From an uncultured Veillonellaceae bacterium (lineage in GTDB: Bacteria; Bacillota; Negativicutes; JARBTT01): a stretch of 64,000 nt of DNA. The notes under the pieces were generated by a model, which was given only the letters and a program-made list of their open reading frames with translations, made no database searches and was not told where the DNA came from. The position numbers and the translations under genes are program-made. This document shows positions 18,279 to 35,677 of the stretch, piece after piece (the stretch's first letter is position 1; every line of letters begins with the position of its first letter). The stretch spans positions 1,344,001 through 1,408,000 of the forward strand of contig CAWDTA010000002.1 in NCBI GenBank assembly GCA_963805085.1. The letters run 5' to 3'.

Positions 18279-18332
18279 GCAAGGATACTATAAGGTAGCT
18301 ACCGTATCCCTTAAGTCAAGGGGGTGATAGTT
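18279..18332 (+). promoter_or_regulatory. Conserved leader of acyltransferase A: sigmaH-like promoter plus strong SD
   Basis: GCAAGGA-N16-CCGTATCCCTTAAGTCAAGGGGGTGATAGTT; near-identical to the leader at 35626-35677 (-). Confidence 0.65.
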
Positions 18333-18344
18333 ATGAAAGTGTAA
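18333..18344 (+). CDS. Putative tripeptide minigene Met-Lys-Val
   Basis: ATG AAA GTG TAA, 4 nt after AAGGGGGTGAT; paralogous minigene at 35614-35625. Confidence 0.5.
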   Translation: MKV

Positions 18345-18403
18345 TTTTTAGTTAAATCGCAGGGGATTTACACAAATAACTATGATGAAAAGGAGCTTAA
18401 AAA

Positions 18404-19573
18404 ATGAACAATAACAATCTAGGACAAGTTACAATGAAAGAAAAAAATATGGGGGAAGGATTTAAAGTTTGTGTTGCTAATACTTTAGCAGAAAAAAAAG
18501 CAATATATCAATTTCGATATAAAGTTTACGTTGAGGAAATGGCAAAGTATAAACTAATGAATCGTAATAAAGAATTATCAGATGAGATGGATGAATGGGG
18601 GCTATTGATCTATGTCAAAGATGGCGAAGAAGTAGTTGGTACAGCAAGAATGAATATTGGCAAAATGCTAGATTTTCCTGAAGAAATTATTAAAGAGTTA
18701 GCTATGAAGGAATTTCATGAATATTATGTTAGTACAAATAGTGATTATCAAGTGGCTTTGCTTAGTAAATTAATGGTTGCCGTAGAATATAGAAGTTCTT
18801 CGGTTCTTTATTTAATGCTGGTTAAACTTTATGAATTTCATTCTAAAACAGGCGTTCAATTTTCTTTTACAGGATGTAGTTTACATTTATTACGCTTTTA
18901 TGAAAAAATGGGCTTTCATCGCTATAGTAAAAATTTTACTGATTTTGGTTATGGATTATTAAGTCCAGTTGTGGTACTAGTTGATGATGCTAAACATTTT
19001 GCTTCAATACGGTCACCACTTTTTCGTATAGTCAGAAAAAAAGCAACTATAAATTCAAAAGATGTTGAATGGCTTCATGAAAAGTTGACGAAAAAATTAA
19101 ATAATGTGAATAGTCAATTGGTTACGGCAGATGAATTATGGTCAATTTTATGTGAGCGTTTACATGCTTTACCTACGGAAGTCATCGAAATATTGCAGGA
19201 TTTATCGATAGAAGAGGCAAAACTCTTTCTTCATGCCTGCAGTAGTATTGTTCAATGCGCAGCTGGAGAAGCCATTACGGTACAAGGCGATGTCAGTTAT
19301 TCGCATAATATATTACTATCGGGGCGTTTAAAATCGTTAACTTTTATAAATCCAATAAAGGAATATAAGATACCTGGTCAATATTTTGGTGCCAATGGGT
19401 TAACCGAGCATCATAAACATTTAGAAGAGATTGTGACGGCGACGCAATCAGAAATATTGGTGCTAACCGGTTTTACTTTCCCGAATTTTAGTAAAGCTAA
19501 TTTAGACATTGCCCATAAGATAATGAAAAAGATGATCACGATGACAAGAAACCCTGTATTTCATTTAAAATAA
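18404..19573 (+). CDS. GNAT N-acyl-amino-acid-synthase-like (FeeM/LuxI fold) protein with C-terminal cNMP-like domain (acyltransferase A)
   Basis: 'EKKAIYQFRYKVYVEEM...DEMD...VVGTARM...SKLMVAVEYR...LLRFYEKMGF'; C-terminal 'AGEAITVQGD...ILLSGRL...GQYFG'. Confidence 0.78.
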   Translation: MNNNNLGQVTMKEKNMGEGFKVCVANTLAEKKAIYQFRYKVYVEEMAKYKLMNRNKELSDEMDEWGLLIYVKDGEEVVGTARMNIGKMLDFPEEIIKELAMKEFHEYYVSTNSDYQVALLSKLMVAVEYRSSSVLYLMLVKLYEFHSKTGVQFSFTGCSLHLLRFYEKMGFHRYSKNFTDFGYGLLSPVVVLVDDAKHFASIRSPLFRIVRKKATINSKDVEWLHEKLTKKLNNVNSQLVTADELWSILCERLHALPTEVIEILQDLSIEEAKLFLHACSSIVQCAAGEAITVQGDVSYSHNILLSGRLKSLTFINPIKEYKIPGQYFGANGLTEHHKHLEEIVTATQSEILVLTGFTFPNFSKANLDIAHKIMKKMITMTRNPVFHLK

Positions 19574-19585
19574 CGATAACAAATA

Positions 19586-19623
19586 CACCTCCTCCATTAT
19601 CATTTAGATTTTGGAGGAGGTGC
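19586..19623. terminator. Bidirectional terminator between acyltransferase A and kinase B
   Basis: CACCTCCTCCA...TGGAGGAGGTG. Confidence 0.6.
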
Positions 19624-20963
19624 TAACAAATGAAAGCAAATAAAAAAGTAGTTCCTTTGTCACTGGTACTAATTTTAATCGTAGCGTGGTGCCTGTTTGC
19701 TATTTGATAGCAGATAGGAATACCGAGACCCGCCCCCGCTTTTTTTGTAGTAATGAAGGGGGTGCCTAATTTATCTAATACCTCGGGAGCAATTCCAAAG
19801 CCTTGATCATTGATTGACAGGATAACACGATGATCTTCTACGAAGGTTCGAATAGTTATTTTTCCACCCTTTGGCATGGCATCAACACTGTTGCTTATAA
19901 GGTTCAATAGTAGTTGACGTATTTCATTTTCATCTAGCGATAAATCAGGAATGTCTTGGAGATCAAGGATTACCTGTATTTTTAAGGAATTGATATGTTC
20001 ATGGATGAATGGCAGTAAGTCTTGAATCATTGTGTTTAGAGAACAAATTTTTAGATTAGCTACTTTTTGTTTAGATAAAGAAATGTATTTTTGAATGATG
20101 GTATTAACGATGTCGATTTCTTCGATCATTAGTTTGAATTCATCTGTATTAACATTGGCTTTATCTTTTTTTTCGAGAACTTGCAAGTAACCGCGGATTG
20201 TAGTAATCGGGTTTCTAATTTCATGGGCGACGGTAATTGCCATATTTCCAACCATAGTAATTCGATCAGGCAAAAGCTGTTGGTAATAAAAAGCATCGAG
20301 TTCAGTTCCTTTCATTAACTGATACTGCATTTTTTTGCCTAGTAAATCCATTCTGGTTTTCTCAAAATAGACCATTAAAGTACCAATAGCGATAACGAAG
20401 CGTAATATGCCGCCCAGTAAGTAGCACCAAGGAAGAAGATAAATTAATACTTCTGGTATCAAAAATCCAGAGATGTTTAGTAAACTCCACGAGATATAGG
20501 AATAGCCAGTAATAAAGCGTCCAATTCCTTTTAATTTTAAATGGCGAATAAAAAGTAGACCAACCCATATTAAAGCGGAGCAACCAAAAAATAGAGGAAG
20601 TAGTAGTTTATAAACCAAAGATGACAATATAGTGTTTAAAACAACATTTAGGGTAAATGTTGTGATAGCTATGTATAGCCAGCCTTTATTGATAGGTTTG
20701 TTGATAAAGCTATGATTTGCCAACAAAAACGTCAAACTATTCATATAAATAAGTAGTTGATATGTTAACAAGCACCAATTTGATTGTTGCCAATCTAGTA
20801 AATTTGCATCGAAAAACAGATATCGAGAAAGAAGAATGAGCCAACTTAAAGACCATAGCCCCATATACCGTTCACGATATAGTGCAAAAAGATATATATA
20901 GATAATCATCATTGAAATAGTACCGAGTGATGATATAATTATTGATAAAGAAAGATAATCCAT
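19623..20963 (-). CDS. Orphan multi-TM histidine kinase, PAS-less paralog (kinase B)
   Basis: Same N-terminal membrane domain as kinases A and C ('YRERYMGLW'), AHEIRNPIT, GAGLGI. Confidence 0.88.
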   Translation of the reverse strand: MDYLSLSIIISSLGTISMMIIYIYLFALYRERYMGLWSLSWLILLSRYLFFDANLLDWQQSNWCLLTYQLLIYMNSLTFLLANHSFINKPINKGWLYIAITTFTLNVVLNTILSSLVYKLLLPLFFGCSALIWVGLLFIRHLKLKGIGRFITGYSYISWSLLNISGFLIPEVLIYLLPWCYLLGGILRFVIAIGTLMVYFEKTRMDLLGKKMQYQLMKGTELDAFYYQQLLPDRITMVGNMAITVAHEIRNPITTIRGYLQVLEKKDKANVNTDEFKLMIEEIDIVNTIIQKYISLSKQKVANLKICSLNTMIQDLLPFIHEHINSLKIQVILDLQDIPDLSLDENEIRQLLLNLISNSVDAMPKGGKITIRTFVEDHRVILSINDQGFGIAPEVLDKLGTPFITTKKAGAGLGIPICYQIANRHHATIKISTSDKGTTFLFAFIC

Positions 20964-21013
20964 AATTACTCCTAATGAAACTTTATTTTACAATTATTAC
21001 ATATACTGTGGAT

Positions 21014-21040
21014 GTTCTACGGATTTTGTGATTTTCCTTC
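21014..21040 (-). promoter_or_regulatory. sigmaH-like promoter of kinase B
   Basis: Minus strand GAAGGAAAATCACAAAATCCGTAGAAC (AGGA-N17-GAAC). Confidence 0.45.
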
Positions 21041-21203
21041 CCAATTATTGTAATAAATTGATTGATTTAGAAATAATTATGCTAAAATAAATAATAAATT
21101 TAGAATGAAAAATTATTTATGGTGAGGTGGTAGTAATAAAAAGGTGCATTGTATTTTCTGGAATAGTAAGAGAATAAAAATTTGAAAGTTAAAGGGGATT
21201 TTT

Positions 21204-21842
21204 ATGGCTATTCCAGATTTAAAAAAAATATATCCTAGAAGCAATGATGTTGAAACAATTTATTTAAAAAATGTTATTAAGAAGAAAAACATTCAGATAG
21301 GAGATTTTACAATTTATAATGATTTTTGTAATGATCCTAGAGAATTTGAAAAAAATAATGTTTTATATCATTATCCAGTAAATGAGGATAGACTGAGTAT
21401 TGGGAAGTTTTGTTCGATAGCCTGTGGGGCAAAATTTATGATGAATAGTGCTAACCATACGCTGTCTTCACTATCAACTTATACATTTCCGATTTTTGGT
21501 GAAGAATGGGAAGAAACCTTACGACTGAAAGATGCTTGGGATAATAAAGGTGATATTGTAATTGGCAATGATGTTTGGATAGGCTATGAGGCTGTGATTA
21601 TGAGTGGTGTTCATATTGGCGATGGTGCTATCATTGCAACCAGAGCAGTTGTTACCAAGGATGTTCCAGCCTATACAATTGCCGGTGGAATTCCGGCAAA
21701 ACCGATAAAAAAGAGATTTAGTGATGAAATTATTGCAGAGCTGCTTTCTTTGCAGTGGTGGGATTGGTCATATGAAAGAATTCTTGCGAATTTAAAACTG
21801 ATTCAAGCTGGCAATATTGAAGCATTAAAAAATGAAATGTAA
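21204..21842 (+). CDS. CatB/Vat-related hexapeptide-repeat O-acetyltransferase
   Basis: 'LSIGKFCSIACGAKF', 'GDIVIGNDVWIG', 'WWDW'. Confidence 0.9.
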   Translation: MAIPDLKKIYPRSNDVETIYLKNVIKKKNIQIGDFTIYNDFCNDPREFEKNNVLYHYPVNEDRLSIGKFCSIACGAKFMMNSANHTLSSLSTYTFPIFGEEWEETLRLKDAWDNKGDIVIGNDVWIGYEAVIMSGVHIGDGAIIATRAVVTKDVPAYTIAGGIPAKPIKKRFSDEIIAELLSLQWWDWSYERILANLKLIQAGNIEALKNEM

Positions 21843-22015
21843 GTTCTTAAACCTATCAAATGATGTATTAAGCAATGCAAAAAATCCGTTAGAGATATAA
21901 AATCTAACGGATTTTTGCTCGTGTTTTAGTGTGAAACTATTTCTATAGATTGAAAAAACAGACGATAAGCAATTATGCATCGTCTGTTTTTATTGGAATC
22001 GTTTAAAGATTAAAC

Positions 22016-23833
22016 TTAAGCTACCGGTAATTTTCCTGCGTCTTCAGTATTTAATCCTAGTGGTTTTTCAATTTTTAAGAGGTTCAGCCAGCTGCGAGTA
22101 GAATCGCCTAGGATGATACCGACAAGGATGAGTAATAAAATCGTAATGACTCCATTGATATTACCTAATAAGTCACCACGGTTAAAAAATGTTGAAATAC
22201 TGTAGAAACCAGCAGTGAATACGGTTACTGTTAAGAATATCAGCGGAAGAAAAGTGATGAGTCCATAGACTTTTTTCTTTGCCACTTTTAAAATAATCGT
22301 GGTTCCTATAGCAAGGGATGCCACGGCTAAAAGTTGATTTGCGATACCAAACATCGGCCAGATGGAGGCAACATCACCGCTATAGAGTAAGTAACCCCAA
22401 GCAAACGATATCAGCGTACTGGTAAGAAGAATGCCTGGCCACCAATGAATTTGTTTTAATGGCTTGTAAGTGTAGGTGCCTAAAACATCTTGAAGGACAT
22501 AACGACCAACACGGGTAAAGGCATCAATTGTCGTCAAGATAAAGAGCGCCTCAAACATGATCGCAAATTGGTACCAATAATTCATCAAATGTTTCATCTC
22601 ACCGATACTAGAAAAAATATGAGCCATGCCAACAGCTAGAGATACTGCACCACCTGGGCGATGCGCAACGTCAATGCCAACCAATTGTGTGAGTTGGTCT
22701 AGATCGACTGTCTGTAGATTCAAGGTCCTAAAGACTTCGGCAGAGGTATTGATCGCAAAATAATCACCAGGCGCCAATACTGCAGCAGCAATTAAAGCCA
22801 TAACAGATACGATCCCTTCAACAAGCATTCCTCCGTAAGCGATGCCGCGGGCTTGGGTTTCTAGTTCCATCATTTTTGGTGTAGTACCAGAGCTAATGAG
22901 AACGTGTGCGCCAGAGATAGCACCACAAGCAATCGTAATACAGACATAAGGCCATACTGGCCCAGGGATGATTGGCCCGCCACCACTGATAAATTGCGTA
23001 GTGAATGGCAAGGCAATGCTAGGATGAACAATTAAAATACCAAGTGCCAAGGCCCCGATGGTGCCTATCTTCATGTAAGAACTTAAATAGTCACGGGGAG
23101 CTAACAGTAACCAAACCGGTAATACCGCCGCAGCGAATCCGTAGATCGGCAATGCAATTGATAATTGTTGTTTAGTTAGTGTGAACCAACTAGCAAAAGG
23201 AGAATTGGCAACGTAACTGCCGGAAAATACTGCAAATAAAACGAGTAAAAATCCAACGAGGGAGCCAGAAAAAATCGAACCAGGAGAAATTTTAAACATA
23301 TAGATACCGACTACCATGGCAATAGGAATTGTCATAAATAAGGTATAAACACCCCAAGGATTTTGATAGAGCGCATTTACAACGACGATACCAAGTCCAG
23401 CTAGAGCTACTACGACAACAAAGACCACGGCAATCGAGGTAGCTGCACCAGTAATTGGCCCGATTTCTCTTTTGGCAATGACCACGAGAGAATCACCTTT
23501 ATGGCGAATCGATGCAAATAAAATAATCAGATCTTGTACAGCACCAGCAAAGACAGAAGCAAGTAAGATCCAAATAAATGGAGGCCCCCAACCAAATTGT
23601 GCTGCTAGAATAGGACCAACCAATGGGCCAGGCCCCGCAATAGCGGCAAAATGATGACCAAATACAATCCATTTATTTGTTTTTACGTATTCGCGACCAT
23701 CCTCATATTGAACAGCCGGCGTAATGTTCTGATCATTCAATGAAAGCACTTTCGCGCAGATAAAAGCGGAATAATAGCGATAAGCAAGAAGAAAGAAACA
23801 GACGGAAACGATAATTAGCGTAATTGAATTCAT
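22016..23833 (-). CDS. cstA: Second CstA family transporter
   Basis: 'FGHHFAAIAGPGPLVGP', 'PRDYLSSYMKIG'; paralog of 11225-13021. Confidence 0.92.
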   Translation of the reverse strand: MNSITLIIVSVCFFLLAYRYYSAFICAKVLSLNDQNITPAVQYEDGREYVKTNKWIVFGHHFAAIAGPGPLVGPILAAQFGWGPPFIWILLASVFAGAVQDLIILFASIRHKGDSLVVIAKREIGPITGAATSIAVVFVVVVALAGLGIVVVNALYQNPWGVYTLFMTIPIAMVVGIYMFKISPGSIFSGSLVGFLLVLFAVFSGSYVANSPFASWFTLTKQQLSIALPIYGFAAAVLPVWLLLAPRDYLSSYMKIGTIGALALGILIVHPSIALPFTTQFISGGGPIIPGPVWPYVCITIACGAISGAHVLISSGTTPKMMELETQARGIAYGGMLVEGIVSVMALIAAAVLAPGDYFAINTSAEVFRTLNLQTVDLDQLTQLVGIDVAHRPGGAVSLAVGMAHIFSSIGEMKHLMNYWYQFAIMFEALFILTTIDAFTRVGRYVLQDVLGTYTYKPLKQIHWWPGILLTSTLISFAWGYLLYSGDVASIWPMFGIANQLLAVASLAIGTTIILKVAKKKVYGLITFLPLIFLTVTVFTAGFYSISTFFNRGDLLGNINGVITILLLILVGIILGDSTRSWLNLLKIEKPLGLNTEDAGKLPVA

Positions 23834-24218
23834 AGAAAAGCTCCTTTATATAATAAATAAAAAATACATGATTTCTATAATAAATCAATTTACGCAATAT
23901 AACAAATAATAAGTACTATAGTATTTTGGAGAAAAACAAAGAAAAGTAGACTAAATGTAAACTTTACACTTTAATTTTGTATACACATATTTTTTTTGCT
24001 GTAAAAATACAGAGTTTAAAGCTAAAGGTTTTTATAAAGTATTGAAAAGCAAGTGTAGAAGCCCTGAAAACAGGTGGATTTTTTGTAGGTTATAATAAAT
24101 ATGCTGATTTTTGTTCTAATATCGTAAGTATGGTATATTAAAATTTGATATAATAGTGTTGAGTGAAACGCTAATTTAACTATCTAATTTTTATAAAATA
24201 GTCTAGTGAGGTTTACTT

Positions 24219-24818
24219 ATGCTGACTTATAATAACAACGCAGATACAATGATTATTGTTCTTCATGAAATTTATGGTGTGAATAAACATATCATCAATG
24301 TGTGCGAAACATTGTCAAAATATCAATATGATAGTATTGCCCCCAATTTATTGAAAGAAAATGTTGTATTTGACTATGATCAAGCAGATCTTGCCTATCA
24401 TAATTTTATGGACAATGTCGGTTTTGAAAATGCCATGAAGCAGATAACGCAAATTCTTTGTAATGTAAGACCACATTATAAAAGAATTTATGTATGGGGG
24501 TATAGTATCGGGGCCACTCTTGCTTGGTTGTGTAGTCAAACAAATTTATGTGATTTCGTTGTTGGTTTTTATGGCTCAAGAATCAGAGATAATCTTGCGG
24601 TAATACCAAACTGCCCAACGCTATTGTTTTTTCCAACAGATGAAGAATCTTTCAATGTAGATGAATTGATTGTGAAGTTAAGTTGTTTAGATAATGTTAA
24701 GGTTGAAAAAATGCATGGCAGGCATGGCTTCGCTGATAAGTTTTCGAAAAATTATAATAGAGAGTCAGCTCTTAGAACAATTAGAGAGGTTTCACTATTC
24801 GCTAAAGCAGCATTTTAA
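24219..24818 (+). CDS. Dienelactone hydrolase family protein
   Basis: 'LHEIYGVN', 'GYSIGAT', 'FYGSRIR', 'HGF'. Confidence 0.85.
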   Translation: MLTYNNNADTMIIVLHEIYGVNKHIINVCETLSKYQYDSIAPNLLKENVVFDYDQADLAYHNFMDNVGFENAMKQITQILCNVRPHYKRIYVWGYSIGATLAWLCSQTNLCDFVVGFYGSRIRDNLAVIPNCPTLLFFPTDEESFNVDELIVKLSCLDNVKVEKMHGRHGFADKFSKNYNRESALRTIREVSLFAKAAF

Positions 24819-26002: not shown

Positions 26003-26035
26003 ACATAAAGAAAATGTTTGAAGGATGGCGATGAA

Positions 26036-27139
26036 ATGGAAGGTTTGGATAGGAATCAACTTAGTGCAATACGACTAAGAGGATACAAATCTATTAAAGC
26101 TTGCAATTTAGAGTTGAAAAAAATCAATGTGCTTATTGGCAGTAATGGAGCTGGTAAATCAAATTTTATTTCTGCTTTTGCATTATTACAAAATATATTG
26201 GCAAAAAATTTACAAGTAGCGGTTGCTCAAAGTGGAATAAATTCATTATTTTTTAATGGAAAAAAAGTTACCGAAGAAATTGAGTTTGAAGTTTTTTTCG
26301 GTAAGAATTCTTATGGTTTTAATTTAATACCAACAGATGATAATAGACTGATTTTCAGCAAAGAATATTTTGGCTATTATGGAGATTATCAAAACGAAAG
26401 TAATGTAAATCGTGGGCATAGTGAGTCAATGTGGCAAACTGGAACAGGTAACAGGATTGGTGATTATGTGAAACCTATTCTTGAAAAACAAAATTGGCGT
26501 GTGTATCATTTTCATGATACAGGTAGAAATGCAAAGGTGAAAACAGAACATAATATATCAAATAATAAAGCTTTACAATATGATGCAGCCAATTTAGTAG
26601 CATTTTTATTTAGATTAAAAAATAAATTCTCAGATAGCTATCATGAAATTGTGCAGACGATTCGCTTGATTGCTCCATATTTTGATGATTTTGACTTAGA
26701 ACCATTAGAAAATAATCAAGAACAAATAATTTTAAGATGGAAACAAAAAGGTTGTGAAGATATTTTTAATGTTTCGCAATTATCCGATGGTACGCTTAGA
26801 TTTATTTGTCTTGCAACCTTGCTTTTACAACCGCATGAACTCCAACCAGCAACTATTATTGTCGATGAACCGGAATTAGGTTTGCACCCGTATGCGATAA
26901 CAATATTTGCTGAAATGGTAAAGCAGCTTTCTGATGAAAAGCAAATTATTATTTCTACCCAATCGGTAGAACTTCTTAATGAATTTGATGTAGATGATGT
27001 GGTGGTAGTGGATAGGGATACAGATGGCTCGGTATTTAAGAGATTAGAAGAGGAAGAATTAAAAGACTGGATAGAAAACGATTATGCACTTGGTGAGCTA
27101 TGGATTAAAAATGTTTTGGGGGGCAGGCTCTCAAAATGA
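26036..27139 (+). CDS. AAA_21/ABC-type ATPase (defence/TA-associated)
   Basis: 'GYKSI', Walker A GSNGAGKSN, signature LSDGT, Walker B VDEPELGLHP, 'ISTQS'. Confidence 0.88.
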   Translation: MEGLDRNQLSAIRLRGYKSIKACNLELKKINVLIGSNGAGKSNFISAFALLQNILAKNLQVAVAQSGINSLFFNGKKVTEEIEFEVFFGKNSYGFNLIPTDDNRLIFSKEYFGYYGDYQNESNVNRGHSESMWQTGTGNRIGDYVKPILEKQNWRVYHFHDTGRNAKVKTEHNISNNKALQYDAANLVAFLFRLKNKFSDSYHEIVQTIRLIAPYFDDFDLEPLENNQEQIILRWKQKGCEDIFNVSQLSDGTLRFICLATLLLQPHELQPATIIVDEPELGLHPYAITIFAEMVKQLSDEKQIIISTQSVELLNEFDVDDVVVVDRDTDGSVFKRLEEEELKDWIENDYALGELWIKNVLGGRLSK

Positions 27140-27783
27140 AAAATGTATATATTTATTGTGAAGGACAAACTGAAGAATCCTTTATCAATGGAGTGTTATA
27201 TCCATACTTTATGAATATGGACATTTATGTGCGACCAATCATTTGTACTACCAAGAAGACAAAAAAACAAACCTTTAAAGGTGGCGCTAGTACTTATAAT
27301 AAAATAAAAAAAGAGTTAGCCATAATTTGTAATAAACATAAAAACGAAGTCGTTACAACAATGTTTGATTATTATGCAATGCCTGATGACACGCCTAATA
27401 TCAATAATAACGAAGTGGACATTTATAAACGAATTGAGCAAATTGAAGATTCTATTAACGCTGATATTGACATGGGTAATTTATTTTTCGGATTTTCTTT
27501 ACATGAGTTTGAAGCGTTGTTGTTTTCGGAGCCTCATGCATTCAAAGCAATTACAACTGATGACATTATAATTGAGATACAAGCGATGAGAGATGAAGCT
27601 TCAACTCCAGAGCATATTAATAATTCTCCAGAAACAGCACCGTCCAAGCGATTGAAGAAACTTATCAATAATTATTCGAAAATAAGATATGGAACAATTG
27701 TTGCAAAAGAAATCGGAATTGATAAAATCATGAGAGAATGTAAACATTTTGCAAAATGGATAGAAAAAATTAAAGCTTGCTAA
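27136..27783 (+). CDS. DUF4276 (TOPRIM-like) protein coupled to the ATPase
   Basis: 'IYCEGQTEE', 'TTMFDYY', 'HEFEALLFS', 'PEHINNSPETAPSKRL', 'C.HF..W'; ATGA overlap with the ATPase stop. Confidence 0.82.
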   Translation: MKNVYIYCEGQTEESFINGVLYPYFMNMDIYVRPIICTTKKTKKQTFKGGASTYNKIKKELAIICNKHKNEVVTTMFDYYAMPDDTPNINNNEVDIYKRIEQIEDSINADIDMGNLFFGFSLHEFEALLFSEPHAFKAITTDDIIIEIQAMRDEASTPEHINNSPETAPSKRLKKLINNYSKIRYGTIVAKEIGIDKIMRECKHFAKWIEKIKAC

Positions 27784-27859: not shown

Positions 27860-29704
27860 TTATTTCTTCAAGTGATAAGGAATCGTGGAAACGATAACAT
27901 TTTTCTTTAAGATGAGTAGCGTACGTAAGATCAAACCTGTTTGATTGTGTAGAAGCCTGTGCCACCATTTTTTCGTTTCAAATTCAGGAATGAGAATCGT
28001 AATATAATCATTAGGTCCTTTTTCTTGTGAAAGCTCTTCGATGAAATCAATCAAAGGCTGTACGACAAGACGATAAGGGGAATATAAAGTTACAAGTTCA
28101 ATGCCAGGATTCCAACAATTCCATTTTTCACGTACTTTATGACCGACTTCTTCATCAATCGCAACGTGTACTGCCAAGACATTATCACCAATTGATTTGG
28201 CATATTTTAAAGTTTGGGCAATAACGCTGGTTGGACTAGAAATTGGAACGACTACGATATTTTTACCAGCATGAATTTCGGTGGTCAAGGCAGGATCCAT
28301 CTGTTCGCTTGGGAGATGAAGTTGTTCCGCCATATCGTTGTAATGCTCTTTGATTTTTCTAAAGATGAAAATCATGATAGGAATGAAGATAAGTACGAGC
28401 CAAGCACCGTAGAAAAATTTGCTGATACCGATAATTAATACGACGATACCAGTTACTATCGCTCCCACTGTATTGACTGTGGCACGGAGAATCCAATAAG
28501 GACCCTTAACGCGGCGCCAGTGGACAATCATACCTGTTTGAGCAATGGTAAAAGATAAAAATACACCGATCGCATAAAGTGAGATGAGATGGTCAGTATT
28601 GCCTTGATAAAGGAAGATTAACATTCCAGCAGCAATACTTAAGAGAATAATACCATTAGAAAAACTGAGACGTTCACCACGGGCACCAAGGTAACGTGGC
28701 ATATAGCCGTCGCGGGCTAGAATAGATAGAAGGGGTGGTAATCCATTAAAGGAAGTGTTCGCTGCCAAATAGAGTACCAGCATTGTGGTGATTTGGATAT
28801 AGTAATAAAACCAGTTACGCCCAAAGGTCAATTCCGCTATTTTAGACAAAGACGTAGCATCTTCGAGTGGTAATATATGAAAATGCATAATTAAAAATGA
28901 TATTCCAATAAACATAAAGCCAAGGATACCAGACATCCAAAAAGTTGTTGTACTCGCATTTTTTACTGAAGGCTCCTTAAACATTGGCACTCCATTGGAA
29001 ATGGCCTCGATACCAGTCATAGAACTACAACCATTTGCGAAGGCCCGCAGTAATAATACACCAACAGTCCAATCAAATTGCCGTTCCAAGGATTCGGTGG
29101 GAATGATAGGAGTTTGTTGTGTGAATGCTTGATAGATTCCAGTGAAAATTAGAACCAATATGCCAAAAATAAAGGCATAAGTAGGGAATACAAAGGTAGT
29201 TGAAGATTCTCTGATGCCTCGTAAATTGACTAACATAAGGATAAAAAATAATACGAATAAGTCAATTGATACTTCATATTGCAATAAATCAGGAAATGCT
29301 GAAATGATAGCGGATGTACCTGCCGAAACACTAACAGCTACGGTTAATGTATAGTCAGCCAATAAGGAAGCTGCTGCCGTTAGGGCGGGAAGTTCACCTA
29401 AATTTTTAATGGCTACGGAATAAGAACCGCCACCACCAGGATTGGCTTTACCAACTTGAACATAGGAAATGGTTACAATCGCCAACAATAGTAAGATGGC
29501 TATGGCAACATGACTTAAATATCCATAAGCTAAAAGCCCAGGCACAGCAAGAATAATCATAATCTGTTCCGGTCCATAAGCAACCGAAGACAGTGCATCA
29601 GAAGAAAAAATAGCAAGAGCTTTAAACTTGGTTAGTTTTTCATGTGAAATTTCTTGATTGTGTAGCGGCCTGCCGATTAATAATCGCCTAAGCAAACGCA
29701 TCAT
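27860..29704 (-). CDS. kimA: APC-family K+ transporter KimA/YdaO
   Basis: 'LIGRPL..', 'SSDALSSVAYGPEQ', 'IPEFETKKWWHRLLHNQT'; c-di-AMP riboswitch upstream. Confidence 0.9.
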   Translation of the reverse strand: MMRLLRRLLIGRPLHNQEISHEKLTKFKALAIFSSDALSSVAYGPEQIMIILAVPGLLAYGYLSHVAIAILLLLAIVTISYVQVGKANPGGGGSYSVAIKNLGELPALTAAASLLADYTLTVAVSVSAGTSAIISAFPDLLQYEVSIDLFVLFFILMLVNLRGIRESSTTFVFPTYAFIFGILVLIFTGIYQAFTQQTPIIPTESLERQFDWTVGVLLLRAFANGCSSMTGIEAISNGVPMFKEPSVKNASTTTFWMSGILGFMFIGISFLIMHFHILPLEDATSLSKIAELTFGRNWFYYYIQITTMLVLYLAANTSFNGLPPLLSILARDGYMPRYLGARGERLSFSNGIILLSIAAGMLIFLYQGNTDHLISLYAIGVFLSFTIAQTGMIVHWRRVKGPYWILRATVNTVGAIVTGIVVLIIGISKFFYGAWLVLIFIPIMIFIFRKIKEHYNDMAEQLHLPSEQMDPALTTEIHAGKNIVVVPISSPTSVIAQTLKYAKSIGDNVLAVHVAIDEEVGHKVREKWNCWNPGIELVTLYSPYRLVVQPLIDFIEELSQEKGPNDYITILIPEFETKKWWHRLLHNQTGLILRTLLILKKNVIVSTIPYHLKK

Positions 29705-29810
29705 AGTGTGTATTCAACCTCCAGTTAATAGTGTCTCCATTTTTAATAACATTTATTTAAAAAAATGCATCGCATTTTGAATTGTTCTGTAAGTCATTAA
29801 AAAAGCGCAC

Positions 29811-29968
29811 AAAAAAAGACCCGTGGGCGGTCTTATGCCCCTCATTTTGGCCTACGAAGTTAGCTGACGGGTAGAATGACAAGAGAAAACATCCCTTCTA
29901 TCCAATGATAGAATTAACCCCAAAAAATTGGTTCCTCCGCTTCTTAATTTAAGAATTAAGCCGCTATT
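29811..29968 (-). ncRNA. Cyclic di-AMP (ydaO/yuaA) riboswitch with expression-platform terminator
   Basis: Minus strand GCTTAAT..GCGGAGGAACCA..TTGGGGTTAAT..AGGGAT..ACCCGTCAGCTAACTTCGTAGGC, then AAGACCgcccacgGGTCTTTTTTT. Confidence 0.92.
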
Positions 29969-30197
29969 TACATGTGAATTATATTATACACCTTTGGCCA
30001 TATAAACAAAAGACAATGAACAACGATAAATATGCAATAATAGGAGTTATAAAGCTATAATTTGTATTTATCATTGGCTTCCGTGAATTTCAACGAATTT
30101 CCTTTCATTTACTCTTATTATCTATTGATTTTTGATCGGGAAATTTAAAAAGCTGGCATGTCGCTCTGGACTGGCCAGCTTTTCAAAATATAGTTTG

Positions 30198-31583
30198 TTA
30201 TAATCTTCTTGCAGCTTCAGAAGCTAAAGGCGATCGTTCACATTCTTCTGGCAACATCGTTACTTGGAAGCATAATTTAGAGCCCATCATTTTTTCACTG
30301 GCATAGCTTAATCCGTTAGATCTGCTATCGAGTAAAGGGTGGTCAATTTGTGCAGGATCGCCAAGTAAGATTATTTTGGTGCCGATGCCGGGGCGGGTTA
30401 ATACAGCTTTTGCTTGGCGGGGCGTAGAATTTTGCATTTCATCGAAGATCGTCCAATATTTTTGGAGTGACCGACCACGTTGGTAAGCCAAGGCTTCCGT
30501 TTGGATGATACGTCTTTCAAAAAGCATATTTACGGTATCTTCTGTTTGTAAGAAGTCTTTGTCTTCTAGTGAAGAATTCCCTGACATCAGGGTAAATAGA
30601 TTGTCTTTAATCGCTCGCATATAGGGTTCTATTTTTTCCGCCTCAGTTCCAGGTAAAAAACCGATTCCCTCATCAAGCATCGCATTTGGACGACAGATCA
30701 GGATATGTTGATATTGTTTTGGTTGGCAATCCATATAATGATAGAGTCCAACGGCCAAGGAATAAAAGGTTTTAGCAGTTCCTGAAATTCCTTTTAAGAT
30801 AACCAGTGGTGCTTGTTCTGCACTCATCATGAGACATTCTTGCATGAAAATTTGACCTACATTTTTAGGCGTGACTCCGAACGGGGTGCGGCTTTGATAT
30901 TTTAAGTGGATTACCTTTTCGCCATCAAAACGGCCCAGTGCAGTATGCCTATCATTATCTGTTGATTTGATCAACAAAAATTGGTTAGTGACGAAAGTAG
31001 CGGGTATTAATATATCTGTTAAATCATCGAAAATATATAATTTATTTGGGTCGATAAATTGCTTATCATCGGAATGGAAAGCATTTATTACTTCACTGGA
31101 GGTATAAGCAATGATGCGACCGGTATATTGCTCTTCGATGCTAGCGACTTTATCATTGCGAAAATCTTCAGCTTGAATTTTTAAGATAGATGCTTTGACG
31201 CGCATATTGGTATCGCGGCTCACTAAAATAGTTTGCTCTCCACTTTCGACAAACCCTTTGCAAACTTGGAGAATCCGATTATCAGATTTCTCTTTGTCCC
31301 AATATATAGGCATGGAAGTGGCGGTATGATTTGCTTCTAAAATGAGAGTTCCGCCGTTGTTATTTAAAGAAACTCCCTCTAGCAGATTACCTTGAATGCG
31401 CATAGTATCAATAATACGACTAACATGGCGACTGTTGGCACCGCGTTCTGTTGATTCTTTTTTAAATCGGTCCAACTCTTCAATAACAACTTCGGGAATT
31501 ACCACTGTGTGTTCGTTGAAAGCATATAAAGCATTGGGTGAGTGCAGCAAAACATTAGTGTCTAAGACATAATATTTTTTCAA
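30198..31583 (-). CDS. PIN-PhoH (PhoH2/YlaK-like) ATPase/RNase
   Basis: 'YVLDTNVLL' PIN domain, GISGTAKT, 'RGRS', 'DEMQN', 'GDPAQID'. Confidence 0.9.
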   Translation of the reverse strand: MKKYYVLDTNVLLHSPNALYAFNEHTVVIPEVVIEELDRFKKESTERGANSRHVSRIIDTMRIQGNLLEGVSLNNNGGTLILEANHTATSMPIYWDKEKSDNRILQVCKGFVESGEQTILVSRDTNMRVKASILKIQAEDFRNDKVASIEEQYTGRIIAYTSSEVINAFHSDDKQFIDPNKLYIFDDLTDILIPATFVTNQFLLIKSTDNDRHTALGRFDGEKVIHLKYQSRTPFGVTPKNVGQIFMQECLMMSAEQAPLVILKGISGTAKTFYSLAVGLYHYMDCQPKQYQHILICRPNAMLDEGIGFLPGTEAEKIEPYMRAIKDNLFTLMSGNSSLEDKDFLQTEDTVNMLFERRIIQTEALAYQRGRSLQKYWTIFDEMQNSTPRQAKAVLTRPGIGTKIILLGDPAQIDHPLLDSRSNGLSYASEKMMGSKLCFQVTMLPEECERSPLASEAARRL

Positions 31584-31922
31584 CGGTAGCCCCCCTTAAT
31601 ATCTTCTCTCTTTTAGTATAGGCTATCTGAATGATTGCTGAGTTAGGAATTTATTAATATTATGTTAATATTTTGCCCGATAAAATAATAAGAATCCGTC
31701 TAAGCAAGCCTCCTTAGATTAATCAAAGTAGTAAACTATATTGCTGATAGCTATGGAGCTATATAGTATATGCCATTTTTATAAGAGTCAATTACAGTAA
31801 TCATAAAATATGGTTTAAATATTATATGATTGAAAAAGTAAAAGGAATCTTATTTTCCGATAGATTTAGTTAAAGGAGGCTGCCGTTATTTTTATGTTTG
31901 ACAAAATTCAATATGTATTCTA

Positions 31923-31946
31923 TAGTTAGTTGTATAAAACTAACTA
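31923..31946. promoter_or_regulatory. Probable MarR operator (copy 1)
   Basis: TAGTTAGTT-N6-AACTAACTA just downstream of a TTGACA promoter; second copy at 32432-32454. Confidence 0.7.
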
Positions 31947-31961
31947 ATAAAGAGGAATGTC

Positions 31962-32411
31962 ATGATGGCGACTGAAGATGTAATCGTCAAAGCGATTAAT
32001 ATTTTATCGGAATCAATGCGTGAATGTATGCGAAAGCATAAAGAAAAAACGCCTGATAGCAAAGAGCTATTTAATTTATCCATCACGCAATTGCATTATC
32101 TCCATGCAATAAGAGAAAGGTCTAATCCGACAATCACCGAGCTTGCCGAACTATTCGGAGTGCAAAAATCTACAGTAACGGTGGCGATCAATAAGCTTTT
32201 AGAGCGTGAGTTTATTGAAAAAACTTCATCGAAAAATGATTTGAGAGTGGTACATATCACCCTGTCAGAAAGGGGAAAACGATTAATTCAAATTGAAGAT
32301 ATGGGCTATTATAAGTTTGCCAGTCAAGTTATGGAGGCTTTAGATGAACAAGAAAGAGAGACCTTTGCGTTTCTATTAACAAAAGTGACAAACAATACTA
32401 CCCGCGATTAA
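31962..32411 (+). CDS. MarR family regulator
   Basis: 'LSITQLHYL...TITELAE..GVQKSTVTVAINKL..DLRVVHITLSERG'. Confidence 0.92.
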   Translation: MMATEDVIVKAINILSESMRECMRKHKEKTPDSKELFNLSITQLHYLHAIRERSNPTITELAELFGVQKSTVTVAINKLLEREFIEKTSSKNDLRVVHITLSERGKRLIQIEDMGYYKFASQVMEALDEQERETFAFLLTKVTNNTTRD

Positions 32412-32431
32412 GCGGGTTTTAAATAGACGAA

Positions 32432-32454
32432 TAGTTAGTTTGATAAAACTAACT
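32432..32454. promoter_or_regulatory. Probable MarR operator (copy 2)
   Basis: TAGTTAGTT-N6-AACTAACT upstream of the exported protein/nitroreductase pair. Confidence 0.7.
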
Positions 32455-32485
32455 TAAATAAAGGATATAGCATAGGAGGTTTACG

Positions 32486-33067
32486 ATGAAAAAAATACAA
32501 TGGAGTTTTAGTGTAATCGTAGCAATTTTGCTCTGCTTTGAGGCAACAGTACTCTGCTTCGCCAACGAGAATAAAGGGGTCGCTGATCAAAGAATTCTTT
32601 TGGTTATTGTTGATCAATCAAAAGAAACATATGGCACTGAAATGAAAAATCAAGTTTATAACCAATTAAAAAGTCAGGTAAAAGGTTTTATTAATGAAGG
32701 AAATGCTCTCAATGATAGTAACAGAGATAACGATGCAATAGCAAAATCAGAGCAGCCTGAGTTATTGCAATTGGCAAACGACAAGGGTGCTAAGCAAGTA
32801 TTACTTGTAGAGATATTGCCAACGAAATCTGATTTTAGTGATATTATCTTCTATAAGGCAATTAAGTCGGAGGCTACGCTAAGGGTTCGTTTATATGATG
32901 CTACGACGAAGCAATATAGGTTGAATGAAACGGTGTCAGGGATAGATACAAATAAAACCTACATTCCCTATACCGGTGTAGGGAAAAAAGTCACTGTATT
33001 AGAGGCGGTTCATAAAGCGACTGATATCGTAGCTCAAAAAGTCTGCTCAGTGGGGGAAGTGCAATAA
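32486..33067 (+). CDS. Exported hypothetical protein
   Basis: Signal-peptide-like N-terminus; AGGAGG SD. Confidence 0.75.
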   Translation: MKKIQWSFSVIVAILLCFEATVLCFANENKGVADQRILLVIVDQSKETYGTEMKNQVYNQLKSQVKGFINEGNALNDSNRDNDAIAKSEQPELLQLANDKGAKQVLLVEILPTKSDFSDIIFYKAIKSEATLRVRLYDATTKQYRLNETVSGIDTNKTYIPYTGVGKKVTVLEAVHKATDIVAQKVCSVGEVQ

Positions 33068-33093
33068 ACTAAGTTTTGCTATGGAGGCTGACT

Positions 33094-34203
33094 ATGAATA
33101 GACGGCAATTCATTCAGTGCGGTATAGTCACAATTGTCGCAGCAGGAGGATTCCCTATGTTTAGTTCCTTATCACAGTTGGAGACAGTAGCTAGAGAGAA
33201 TTTGCATGATAATGTGGCAGGATTAGAAGCAGATTACATTGATATTTTATATTTAGCATCATTGGCACCTAGCGGGCATAATGCACAACCGTGGACGGTA
33301 AAGCTTATGAATGACCATCATTGGATTATCGGTACAGATTCTAATCGGTGGTTACCTGTTATTGATCCAGAAAATAGGGAAGCACTTATTTCAATTGGTG
33401 CCTTTTTGGAAAATTTGGTGGTTGCGGCGAATTCAAAAGGCTATCATGTAGAATATCATATCATAGCTAAAAATCTCAAAGACAAAGACATAGTAGAGAT
33501 AAATTTATATAAAGTAGGTTTGCCGGACACTTCTGACGTCAAAAATATTGAATTGCGTAGAACCGTGAGAAATAAATTACTTACAGATGATTTATCTAGA
33601 GAAGATATTGAGTTTATGATAGGAGAAAATAAAGATGGCTTTCATTATTTTCCACGTAATACAAAAGAAGAGCAGTATTTAAGTGAAGGGACTATTCTAG
33701 CTAATAAATTACAGACCTACCAAGATTCAGCGCAAGACGAACTGGCTAAATGGGTTCGTTGGTCAAATAAGGATATTAGACAATTTGGCAATGGATTAAC
33801 AACTGAAACGATGGAAATAGAAGGGTTTGCCAGATGGTATGTTAAAAATTTTTATTCCAAGCAATCTGTGTTAGCGAATAGTTTTCGTGAAGCGACGATC
33901 AAGAAAATAACGGAGCAAGTGACAAATGGCAGTGGCTGGTTACTTCTTACGAGTATGGATTCCTCGGCGCTTGAGCTTATCGATCTAGGACGAAAACTTC
34001 AGCAAATGTGGCTTGGTATAAGAGAGAGACAAATCGCAATTCATCCGATGAATCAACTGATTGAAGATGTAGCAATGCGTGGTAAGACTTCTTCAGCCTT
34101 GGGGATTGCAGGCGATAGCCAACTTCTTCTTAGAGTTGGCTATATCAATAACTATCCTAAACCGGTCAGCCCAAGGATGTCTTTGCAAACTATCATCGTA
34201 TAA
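33094..34203 (+). CDS. Acg-like nitroreductase/FMN-binding protein with Tat-like signal
   Basis: 'MNRRQFI' twin-arginine motif, 'ASLAPSGHNAQPW', 'LLRVGY'. Confidence 0.82.
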   Translation: MNRRQFIQCGIVTIVAAGGFPMFSSLSQLETVARENLHDNVAGLEADYIDILYLASLAPSGHNAQPWTVKLMNDHHWIIGTDSNRWLPVIDPENREALISIGAFLENLVVAANSKGYHVEYHIIAKNLKDKDIVEINLYKVGLPDTSDVKNIELRRTVRNKLLTDDLSREDIEFMIGENKDGFHYFPRNTKEEQYLSEGTILANKLQTYQDSAQDELAKWVRWSNKDIRQFGNGLTTETMEIEGFARWYVKNFYSKQSVLANSFREATIKKITEQVTNGSGWLLLTSMDSSALELIDLGRKLQQMWLGIRERQIAIHPMNQLIEDVAMRGKTSSALGIAGDSQLLLRVGYINNYPKPVSPRMSLQTIIV

Positions 34204-34287
34204 AAAATTTGCTCATCACTTAGAATTTGATGTGGATATTTTTGTTATACGTATTCAGCAATAGCATTGGTTCTGCCAATAACAATA

Positions 34288-34329
34288 AATTGCCGTTACA
34301 CTTGAAGTTAACAAGTTGTAACGGCAATT
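34288..34329. terminator. Bidirectional terminator
   Basis: AATTGCCGTTACA...TGTAACGGCAATT between convergent genes. Confidence 0.65.
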
Positions 34330-34396
34330 ATATCTGTGATTAAATAGAATACAAATGGATTATTAAATTACTTGTTTGTTCACGTGGAAGTAGCAA

Positions 34397-35557
34397 TTAG
34401 CGACGTGATGGATATCTATCACATCGGCTAATGTTTTGCAGGATGTTGTTAGCAACGTTTGGATTTGCATTGCTGAATTTAGGAAAGGCTAAGCTGGAAA
34501 GTACTAATATCTCAGTGGTGGTAGTGGCAAAAATATCTTCCGTATGCTTAGGATGATTGACCAAGCCATTCACACCGATGGCATGGGCTGGGGGAATATG
34601 AGTGGTGACTGAGTTTGATATGTTTGCCGATCTTAGTTGCCCGGAGATTAATATATTTAGCGCATAGTTTGTATCGCCCTGGCAGGTAATCTGATCGCCT
34701 GCATCACAATGGACAACAACACCGCAGGAATGTAGAAACTTTATCGCATCTATATCCGATAAGTCTTGTAATAGCGGCAGAGCTTGATTTGGATAAGTAC
34801 CAAGCCGAGTATATAAAAACTCCCATAGTTCCTCTTGGCTAACTAGCTGGCTGTTTAGTATTTTTGAGTTTTCTTCAAACTCTTTATAAAACCATTGGAT
34901 TGCTTGGCTGTCTAACGATGCTCTTTTTCGCGCCGCACGATAAAAGGGAGAACGTACAGCTCGTAAATGGGCAATGTCATCTACCAATAAAACATAGGGA
35001 GCTAGTAATCCGTAACCATCATCAATAAAATTTCGCCCAAAACGGCGGAACCCAAATTGTTCATAGAGTCGTAATAAATGAAAATTACATACACCAAAAC
35101 TAAATTGTATTTGGTGCTGGCAATAAAATTGATAGCTCTCAATTGCAAGCAAATAGGATACAGTGGAATTTCGATAAGCTGCTGCTACCATAAATTTTGA
35201 GGTATAGGCGAATTGTTGATTGTTTTTCGTAAACTCTGAAAATTTTTTTAGAGAAAGTACTTGTATCCAAAACGAAGGGAAATCGTTAATTTGGCCAATA
35301 TTTACTCTTAGGGTGCCAATGATTTCTGAGCCAGCTTTAGCGTACACAATCAAGGCCCAGTCATCAAGATCATCATATAATAATTTATTCTTGTGATCCA
35401 TATTAGGAAAACGTTTAGCCATTTCCTCAGCATAGATACGATAACGAAAACGGTAAATTTCGATTTTTTCCTCAGCGGTTGTGGCGAGCCCGATTGTTAC
35501 TGCTTTTTCTTCTTCATTTAGGCAAGGAATTGTGTTCAGGTCATTCGGTTTCATCAT
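34397..35557 (-). CDS. GNAT N-acyl-amino-acid-synthase-like protein with cNMP-like domain (acyltransferase B)
   Basis: Paralog of 18404-19573: 'EKIEIYRFRYRIYAEEM', 'SKFMVAAAYR', 'LLRLYEQFGF', 'LRAVRSPF', 'NSQLV', 'AGDQITCQGD'. Confidence 0.78.
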   Translation of the reverse strand: MMKPNDLNTIPCLNEEEKAVTIGLATTAEEKIEIYRFRYRIYAEEMAKRFPNMDHKNKLLYDDLDDWALIVYAKAGSEIIGTLRVNIGQINDFPSFWIQVLSLKKFSEFTKNNQQFAYTSKFMVAAAYRNSTVSYLLAIESYQFYCQHQIQFSFGVCNFHLLRLYEQFGFRRFGRNFIDDGYGLLAPYVLLVDDIAHLRAVRSPFYRAARKRASLDSQAIQWFYKEFEENSKILNSQLVSQEELWEFLYTRLGTYPNQALPLLQDLSDIDAIKFLHSCGVVVHCDAGDQITCQGDTNYALNILISGQLRSANISNSVTTHIPPAHAIGVNGLVNHPKHTEDIFATTTTEILVLSSLAFPKFSNANPNVANNILQNISRCDRYPSRR

Positions 35558-35613
35558 TTTATTTCTCCTTTAATAATTCGTTATCTTTGCGTAAGGTTTT
35601 TAAAAAAATCACA

Positions 35614-35625
35614 TTACGTTTTCAT
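35614..35625 (-). CDS. Putative tripeptide minigene Met-Lys-Thr
   Basis: ATG AAA ACG TAA, 4 nt after a perfect AAGGAGGTGAT SD. Confidence 0.5.
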   Translation of the reverse strand: MKT

Positions 35626-35677
35626 AACGATCACCTCCTTGGCTAAGGGATACGGAGAAATATGAAGTTTTCCTTGC
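35626..35677 (-). promoter_or_regulatory. Conserved leader of acyltransferase B: sigmaH-like promoter plus perfect SD
   Basis: Minus strand GCAAGGA-N15-CCGTATCCCTTAGCCAAGGAGGTGATCGTT. Confidence 0.65.

Follow-up and report, generated by a model that had tools for sequence, protein, structure and literature searches.

A conserved Shine-Dalgarno sequence and minimal open reading frame in a probable four-helix leader of kinase-linked acyltransferase genes in Negativicutes

The 64,000-nucleotide stretch of DNA analyzed here (the window; contig CAWDTA010000002.1 of an uncultured Veillonellaceae bacterium, assembly GCA_963805085.1) holds two inverted copies of one module, ~17 kb apart. In each module, the gene for a membrane PAS-HisKA-HATPase kinase is followed by a terminator, a leader, and a gene for a FeeM-like GNAT acyltransferase with a C-terminal cNMP-binding-like domain. 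Each leader carries a three-codon open reading frame (ORF), called the minigene here, behind a very strong Shine-Dalgarno (SD) sequence. An initial annotation, made from the sequence alone, had proposed two readings: either the minigene encodes a Met-Lys-X peptide that serves the enzyme as acyl acceptor or signal precursor, or it is a start-stop regulatory upstream ORF (uORF) or 5' mRNA element. The analysis described below showed that the SD, the start codon, and an early stop are conserved among relatives and that the peptide is not; the leader probably folds into four helices (P1 to P4) that tie the minigene to the ribosome-binding site of the GNAT gene. The features of the two modules, in window coordinates, are as follows.

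16488 to 18158, plus strand: histidine kinase of module A, with an N-terminal membrane region followed by PAS, HisKA, and HATPase domains (Pfam).
18191 to 18238, plus strand: intrinsic terminator 3' of kinase A, a 20-pair stem followed by a T run (terminator scan).
18279 to 18285, plus strand: upstream box GCAAGGA of leader A, kept across loci.
18297 to 18303, plus strand: 5' strand of P1 in leader A, pairing with the GNAT SD (minimum-free-energy fold; self-versus-cross z = -6.9).
18305 to 18326, plus strand: P2 hairpin of leader A, anti-SD mimic (18305-18312) with the SD arm of the minigene (18319-18326); 93 to 94% of cells paired.
18318 to 18328, plus strand: SD of minigene A, able to pair with the 16S 3' tail throughout, with a G-U pair at one position.
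18333 to 18344, plus strand: minigene A, ATG AAA GTG TAA, with orthologous mini-ORFs in 78 of 107 kinase-linked loci.
18327 to 18383, plus strand: P3 of leader A (18327-18334 with 18376-18383) around P4 (18339-18344 with 18368-18373), from the fold (z = -5.3 for P3 and -4.8 for P4).
18392 to 18397, plus strand: SD of GNAT A, which is also the 3' strand of P1 (fold).
18404 to 19573, plus strand: GNAT A, a FeeM-like N-acyltransferase domain and a cNMP-binding-like domain (Pfam, NCBIfam).
34397 to 35557, minus strand: GNAT B, a paralogue of GNAT A with 44% identity (Pfam, pairwise comparison).
35560 to 35568, minus strand: SD region of GNAT B, which is also the 3' strand of P1 (fold).
35578 to 35630, minus strand: P3 of leader B (35630-35624 with 35584-35578) around P4 (35618-35614 with 35594-35590), from the fold.
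35614 to 35625, minus strand: minigene B, ATG AAA ACG TAA (sequence).
35629 to 35640, minus strand: SD of minigene B, a perfect 12-nucleotide complement of the 16S 3' tail (sequence).
35632 to 35652, minus strand: P2 hairpin of leader B, in which the anti-SD mimic pairs with the SD of the minigene (fold).
35654 to 35662, minus strand: 5' strand of P1 in leader B (fold).
35671 to 35677, minus strand: upstream box GCAAGGA of leader B (sequence, alignment with leader A).
35719 to 35777, minus strand: long hairpin and T run 3' of kinase B, likely the kinase B terminator (sequence); it had only a subthreshold, hairpin-shaped Rfam match, and the terminator scan did not call it.
35771 to 37498, minus strand: histidine kinase of module B (Pfam), 47% identical to the kinase of module A.

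Both minigenes lie exactly where the initial annotation had placed them, at 18333-18344 (+) and 35625-35614 (-), and its description of a near-perfect SD before each was accurate when the 3' tail of the 16S rRNA was taken from this genome. The SD of leader B (35640-35629) matches 12 nucleotides (nt) of that tail perfectly; the SD of leader A differs from it by one A-to-G change, at which a G-U pair is still possible. Each GNAT gene also has an SD of its own, as had been described, with its start codon 59 nt (A) or 56 nt (B) past the minigene stop. Copy B has, in addition, a second ATG that shares bases with the minigene stop and is directly followed by TGA (TAATGTGA, 35614-35609, minus strand), an overlapping start-stop that is absent from copy A.

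In two-sequence alignments, leaders A and B were identical at 32 of 37 positions from CCGTAT to codon 2 and at 45 of 60 positions from the GCAAGGA box to codon 2, compared with 50 of 128 positions in the upstream flank and 32 of 76 in the downstream flank. The proposal that a core was kept while its surroundings diverged was therefore borne out (86% identity in the core versus ~40% in the flanks, 44% between the GNATs, and 47% between the kinases). A pattern of SD, hairpin, and ATG with up to 2 mismatches found these two sites only in the 4.2-Mb genome, and the reversed control found 0. No kinase upstream and no such leader were found at three other GNAT paralogues of the same genome. The paralogues L006 and L007 (same genome, contig 2, ~1.72 Mb) lie ~3.7 kb apart with near-identical upstream regions; one of them is truncated to 130 amino acids, neither has the kinase or the leader, and the pair looks like a local duplication.

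Relatives were sought with a profile of both GNATs, which gave matches in 63 of 401 sampled Negativicutes genomes; named relatives of the gene occur in Sporomusa, Pelosinus, and Massilibacillus. The GTDB family and order of the source organism comprise two genomes, and searches at those ranks were uninformative. The upstream DNA of all GNAT matches, together with the window copies and the paralogues of the same genome, made up 121 records, in which the kinase was upstream on the same strand (107 records), divergent (6), or absent (6); 2 records held too little upstream DNA. A mini-ORF was scored where an SD with at most 2 mismatches from GGAGGTGAT was followed 2 to 8 nt on by ATG, GTG, or TTG opening an ORF of up to 10 codons. 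This pattern was matched at 78 of the 107 same-strand kinase-linked loci, with an ORF of up to 4 codons at 68, of exactly 3 codons at 58, and with a start-stop at 5. Inspection by eye of the loci missed by the pattern added two further start-stops (L121 and L129), giving seven loci in seven genomes of four GTDB families, as well as more three- or four-codon ORFs with slightly altered SDs (L075, L112, L125, L128, and L130). Altogether, the device was kept in at least 50 genomes from many Negativicutes families.

Five of the six records without a kinase also lacked a mini-ORF, and the sixth (L081) ends at a contig end. As a negative control, the upstream regions of 44 distant homologues (43 from outside Negativicutes plus L017) gave the pattern once; the kinase was absent from all 43 loci outside Negativicutes, and the one kinase hit, L017, is from Negativicutes. 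At the six loci with a divergent kinase (L136 to L141, a Sporomusa-like subclade), four leaders keep the SD and an MKT mini-ORF, one has ATA in place of the start codon, and in one (L141) a 21-codon ORF extends into the GNAT start. A contig labeled Sphingobacterium sp. (DKIT01000180.1, ~150-230; L014) carries a leader and GNAT of the Negativicutes type; it reads NN at the expected minigene start and hence could not be scored, and its label is probably a binning error.

Next, the conserved parts of the mini-ORF were separated from the variable ones. When the SD and the start codon were required and the stop was not, a stop followed within 4 codons in frame 0 in 68 of 82 distinct leaders and in the +2 frame in only 6 of 82; the +1 frame is uninformative in this test, since ATGA yields TGA immediately. 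All three stop codons were used (TAA, 53; TAG, 18; TGA, 12). The products were diverse: orthologous mini-ORFs of 1 to ~10 codons specified 40 different peptides, of which MKT was the commonest (30 of 83), followed by M alone, MIV, MRT, MKV, MTT, MNI, MNL, MLA, and others. MKT itself was encoded with both Lys codons and all four Thr codons. Among 63 mini-ORFs, Lys was specified by AAA in 22 and by AAG in 14, and Thr (ACN) was present in 38; the alternatives at the Lys position were N, T, R, I, S, D, Q, P, and L. Alignment of homologous upstream regions thus upheld the SD, the start, and the early stop of the initial annotation and not its Lys codon or peptide, and the idea that residue 3 determines specificity failed on the 40 products of orthologous leaders. 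This diversity, together with the range of ORF lengths and the start-stops, argues that what selection keeps, as read from sequence conservation, is a start codon that stands behind a very strong SD and is followed almost immediately by a stop, with no particular peptide. The excess of MKT could mean that the identity of codon 2 or 3 matters, for example, through initiation or termination kinetics; AAA as the second codon favors initiation. The part that these bases take in P4 may also account for much of the preference for MKT, Lys, and Thr.

A covariance model of the leader (R1) gave only the two window copies in the source genome, with E values of 1e-17 and 1e-15 (the next match had an E value of 0.34). 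In 151 sampled Negativicutes genomes, R1 gave 48 hits with E values of 1e-3 or lower in 34 genomes, and 47 of the 48 lay directly upstream of GNAT profile matches; the 48th precedes a GNAT N terminus that is cut by a contig end. The link of this leader to one gene family was thus exclusive. R1 was also run on 98 sources (the window and 97 loci comprising kinase-linked loci, the six divergent-kinase loci, and L178), in which it matched 63 leaders, including the ATA/ATT variants and two start-stop variants. Neither window leader had an Rfam hit near the gathering score, even with lax filters. The expectation that standard annotation would miss the element proved right, as annotation sees none of the leader or minigene and Rfam has no model for it. 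A PDB sequence search for the GNAT gave marginal GNAT hits only (E of ~0.1).

Conservation extends into the DNA 5' of the leader (18240-18285, plus strand; 35710-35671, minus strand; and other loci), where repeats of the TTTCTAC/TTTTTACA type precede an (A/G)CAAGGA(A/T)T box, with CCGTAT another 15 to 17 nt downstream. The box showed no self-versus-cross covariation with RNA segments (z from -1.7 to +0.5) and may act at the DNA level; the conserved upstream DNA could bind a response regulator or serve as an unusual promoter. The AGGA box and CCGTAT were considered as a widespread alternative-sigma promoter, and this was rejected on the basis that the pair was not enriched in its own genome (6 hits versus 21 for the reversed control).

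To describe the leader as RNA, its fold was computed. The minigene lies in a leader of ~115 nt with four predicted helices: P1 pairs a 5' pyrimidine strand with the GNAT SD; in P2, an anti-SD mimic (CGUAUCCCU) folds back onto the minigene SD; P3 joins the minigene spacer and start codon to the tract just upstream of the GNAT SD; and P4 joins codon 3 and the stop codon to a tract further downstream. RNAfold gave both diverged window leaders the same P1-P2-P3-P4 minimum-free-energy fold, at -25.8 kcal/mol for A (z = -2.3) and -25.1 kcal/mol for B (z = -3.5). Differences between the copies were compensated across the helices: P1 pairs AGCUACC with GGAGCU in copy A and AUUUCUCC with GGAGAAAU in copy B, P3 pairs AUAGUUAU with AUAACUAU versus UCGUUAU with AUAACGA, and P4 pairs GUGUAA with UUACAC versus CGUAA with UUACG.

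A wider set was then folded. From 68 records with E values of 1e-118 or lower, 15 were dropped when the pattern or the assignment of the GNAT start failed, leaving 53 delimited leaders, 52 of them distinct. In the minimum-free-energy folds of these 52, P1 was present in 38, P2 in 43, P3 in 33, and P4 in 29. An alignment-free self-versus-cross test compared the duplex energy of each leader's own two strands with that of strands swapped among the 52 leaders. Own strands paired better for all four helices (z = -6.9 for P1, -5.3 for P3, -4.8 for P4, and -3.4 for P2), and 0 of 1000 to 2000 permutations was as good; eighteen control pairings of nonpartner segments, taken as 10 of 11 in one set and 7 in another, gave z values from -1.7 to +1.1, and one adjacent-window pair gave -3.3. 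In a MAFFT alignment (A3) restricted to 45 leaders, the 52 less three near-duplicates and four divergent sequences, the structure of P1, P2, and P3 paired 81% of cells, compared with 50 to 59% for slid partners. A second alignment (A4) of 63 sequences was fitted to the model and hence leans toward structure; in it, 80% of cells paired, compared with 49 to 66% for slid partners, 14 of 20 pairs showed double changes, and 56 double-change cells were counted, compared with 25.7 in shuffles (0 of 500 reached this number). Windows of 150 nt from distant clades, which included upstream terminators, showed no consistent architecture.

The fold is thus backed by thermodynamics and by the covariation of strands, and we regard the P1 to P4 model as probable but not proven. 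Between P1 and P2, the leaders share CGTA, in which T and A are invariant and C and G are nearly so. The most highly conserved heptamer of the leader, CCGTATC (18302-18308, plus strand), recurs letter for letter close to the 3' end of the 16S rRNA of this genome (L179, ~1520-1530, minus strand), just before GGAAGGTG. The identity possibly stems from common pairing with a GGUG tract; for 7 nt, it could also be due to chance. Of the two readings in the initial annotation, that of a start-stop regulatory uORF or 5' mRNA element agreed with the conservation of SD, spacing, start, and early in-frame stop, and it is made sharper because these elements sit in a conserved fold that also covers the GNAT SD.

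We lean toward the reading that the minigene is the ribosome-loading site of a folded leader that controls the downstream GNAT/cNMP gene in cis and that its peptide has no role. A ribosome would compete with the cis anti-SD mimic for the minigene SD, and an ORF so minimal (0 to 3 codons past the start) would let it bind with high affinity and leave again at once. By initiating or stalling on the minigene, a ribosome would melt P2, P3, and P4, and the leader, thereby remodeled or protected, would set the level of GNAT translation. We infer transcription from just upstream of P1, translation of the minigene, and the direction and trigger of control; by analogy with the leader minigenes of vmlR, LEE1, and axe-txe (see below), activation by ribosome occupancy or stalling would be the preferred direction.

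In the computed folds, the GNAT SD is masked, with an average cost of ~8 kcal/mol for opening the SD and the start codon in the 52 leaders, and the minigene's own SD and start codon are also paired. Simple thermodynamic unmasking of the GNAT SD by the ribosome footprint was not supported, as there was no net change in opening cost: with positions -18 to +15 around the minigene start forced to be unpaired, opening of the GNAT SD cost 8.2 versus 8.0 kcal/mol, and among the 52 leaders the cost fell by more than 1 kcal/mol in 17 and rose by more than 1 kcal/mol in 12. No conserved alternative pairing that would free the GNAT SD was found among the segment pairings tested. Activation would therefore need steric, kinetic, or nuclease effects. 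An initiation complex protects RNA further upstream, which here would extend to about the P1 strand, and the steric route would work through a complex reaching that far. In the kinetic route, freed AU-rich strands of P3 would serve as a standby site; in the nuclease route, a ribosome parked on the minigene would bar the way to RNase J.

The lack of any drop in opening cost is the first of several results that weigh against control through the minigene or against the fold on which it depends. The RNAalifold consensus recovered P2 alone, on both alignments. Covariation in A3 was weak for P1 and P3, with 20 double-change cells compared with 19 to 36 in slid controls, and 20 to 30% of P1 and P3 cells were unpaired. 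Scans for sigma-70-type promoters between the kinase terminator and P1 were empty, and the P1 5' strand is only putatively part of the RNA. The initial annotation had counted loss of the ATG or the stop in homologues as evidence against its proposal; both were kept in most leaders, but ATA or ATT replaces ATG in three otherwise intact ones (L091, L095, and L136), and a fourth (L116) has the SD and no start. Finally, 29 of the 107 kinase-linked loci did not match the pattern; some of these were rescued by eye, others are truly without an ORF, and several loci (L118, L119, L122, L124, L127, and others) have no leader at all.

The main rival, which we consider rather improbable, is a pure 5' mRNA stabilizer or roadblock of the kind represented by STAB-SD, hbs, and the LEE4 mini-ORF, in which RNase J, degrading from the 5' end, is stopped by a ribosome held at the strong SD and mini-ORF, without any signal-dependent switch. 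Like STAB-SD and hbs, the leaders have a strong SD in a 5' untranslated region at a distance from the main start; it complements the 16S 3' end over 12 nt in B and over 11 nt with one G-U pair in A (9 to 12 nt of the tail pair with the SD). The ORF is minimal, with start-stop variants equally good in evolution; the minigene SD lies ~15 to 20 nt downstream of the P1 5' strand; and this Firmicute genome has two RNase J genes and RNase Y. By 5' trimming up to the ribosome, such a device might even remove the P1 5' strand and free the GNAT SD. STAB-SD works without a start codon, whereas here the start and the immediate stop are strongly kept, outside the one leader with an SD and no start and the three with ATA or ATT, and the element is paired to the ribosome-binding region of the main gene. 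Stabilization also leaves unexplained why the minigene start and stop pair with downstream tracts in P3 and P4 and why these strands covary. On hbs mRNA, RNase J1 is reported to be blocked by ribosomes initiating at a strong SD (PMC5737220), and a bound ribosome could protect the leaders here in the same way.

A riboswitch-like or protein-binding three-way junction of P1, P2, and P3 that sets P1 stability, with the minigene as part of the expression platform, is unlikely. Such a junction is present in the computed folds, and the near-invariant CGUA between P1 and P2 is explained only partly by pairing. The GNAT SD is masked by ~8 kcal/mol with or without the ribosome footprint, and another opener is therefore needed. 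The conserved bases, however, can also be read as an anti-SD mimic extending P2, no Rfam family matches, the gene context suggests no ligand, and the strict constraint on the start and early stop points to the ribosome as the partner.

Still less probable, and very unlikely in our estimate, is an element that acts at the DNA level only, with the core as a promoter or operator (the boxes and the palindrome serving as a repressor site) and the tiny ORF incidental to it. The upstream boxes are conserved without RNA covariation, CCGTAT follows the AGGA box at a promoter-like spacing of 15 to 17 bp, and the P2 arms are palindromic in some loci. However, loop length in the palindrome is variable (0 to 8 nt), as fits an RNA hairpin and not a dimer site, the early in-frame stop uses all three stop codons, the strands of P1, P3, and P4 covary over long range, and the box pair, as noted above, is not enriched in the genome. 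The reading of the tripeptide (f)Met-Lys-Val/Thr as acyl acceptor or signal precursor retains almost no probability: the minigene always adjoins a FeeM-like N-acyltransferase gene and MKT is the commonest product, with synonymous variation at Lys and Thr, but the 40 products of 1 to ~10 codons, the many replacements of Lys, the seven start-stop loci from four GTDB families, which can yield no peptide, the ATA or ATT start in three leaders, and the part that codon 2 and 3 bases take in P4 all argue against it, and a conserved core peptide beside a modifying enzyme, as in ribosomally synthesized and posttranslationally modified peptide systems, was not found among orthologous leaders.

Leader minigenes, uORFs, start-stops, and SD-based stabilizers are already known as kinds of element. 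Among the closest to the present leaders is vmlR of Bacillus subtilis, in which a three-codon uORF (MIN) with its own SD lies within a stem-loop of a Firmicute 5' leader and initiation on it is reported to be required for induction (PMC9226507). The vmlR SD is sequestered by a hairpin, as the GNAT SD is in the computed folds (P1 in 38 of 52 leaders), and initiation is described there as what matters, other residues being able to replace the natural ones and the natural variants MDN, MDK, and MRK being functional (PMC9226507); here, likewise, the peptide is not conserved. In contrast, vmlR is described as acting mainly through an intrinsic terminator, an antiterminator, and NusG pauses, whereas terminator scans found no terminator-like site between the minigene and the GNAT gene in either copy; a NusG-type TTNTTT pause motif past the stop was not enriched (6 of 52 leaders versus 4 of 51 in the next window). 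The SD of the vmlR uORF is described as single stranded, and the minigene SD here is paired with the anti-SD mimic. Moreover, vmlR encodes an ABCF resistance factor and not a kinase-linked acyltransferase, and its leader has no sequence relationship to the leaders described here, which had no Rfam hit.

Optimal expression of ler from LEE1 of enterohemorrhagic E. coli requires a two-codon minigene (PMC3262186), and the two-codon minigene of axe-txe is a positive, cis-acting element (PMC8708949). Both are very short leader ORFs, like those of the present family, and are reported to be translated and to have a positive cis effect on the gene that follows; the second codon of the LEE1 minigene is AAA, as in the window minigenes. 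They are single cases from Proteobacterial or plasmid systems, however, and not a broad Negativicutes family, and their abstracts report no conserved four-helix fold. Distance is reported to be critical in both, as is frame in axe-txe, whereas here the frame is not conserved (20, 19, and 13 leaders) and the distance ranges from 40 to 59 nt. The start-stop elements of E. coli yecJ and hslR bind ribosomes at a start codon with a stop immediately or almost immediately behind it and have a proposed regulatory role without a product; they are intragenic, with a reported effect of 16% (bioRxiv 10.1101/520783), and the present ORFs lie in a conserved 5' leader fold. Seven orthologous leaders are true start-stops, and the window copies have two sense codons past the ATG.

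The surroundings of module A are rich in signaling genes, with a GGDEF diguanylate cyclase (15088-16185, plus strand) flanking the module, a third histidine kinase (19623-20963, minus strand) convergent with GNAT A, and a hexapeptide-repeat transferase (21204-21842, plus strand) nearby. Between the two modules lies an overlapping gene pair for an AAA_21 ATPase and a DUF4276 protein (26018-27783, plus strand), which looks like a two-gene defense-type system. A c-di-AMP riboswitch (29834-29972, minus strand; Rfam RF00379, 84.8 bits, E = 1e-18) is located upstream of a gene for an AA_permease_2 family transporter (27860-29704, minus strand).

Two- and three-codon regulatory minigenes of bacteria have been known as isolated cases (vmlR, LEE1, and axe-txe) and bacterial start-stops as a handful of sites with small effects, and no description of the present leader family was found in the open-access papers searched. 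What is new is a broad family, in at least 50 genomes, whose probable four-helix architecture connects the minigene with the main ribosome-binding site, whose ORFs form a natural series from start-stops to lengths of a few codons, and which is linked exclusively to an uncharacterized kinase-acyltransferase module. The natural variants amount to a ready-made mutational experiment, which can separate what such a device needs (SD strength, a start, an immediate stop, and pairing partners) from what it does not need (the peptide).

The leader may also be a sensor for which the ribosome itself is the ligand. In this tentative and doubtful extension of the ribosome-loading model, the extended SD, the ORF of 0 to 3 codons, and the cis anti-SD competitor would form a trap that reads the level of free or stalled initiating ribosomes, with entry into stationary phase or sporulation and inhibitors of the peptidyl-transferase center as possible triggers. 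If so, it would gate an enzyme for a signal of the N-acyl amino acid type that is paired with a sporulation-type kinase, and no earlier family of natural three-codon and start-stop regulatory ORFs in bacteria would have combined phylogenetic breadth with a defined RNA architecture. The leader also flags an uncharacterized signaling module, in which a membrane PAS kinase stands beside a FeeM-like acyltransferase with a cNMP-binding-like domain and which, to judge from the conserved leader sequences, is evidently under tight posttranscriptional control.

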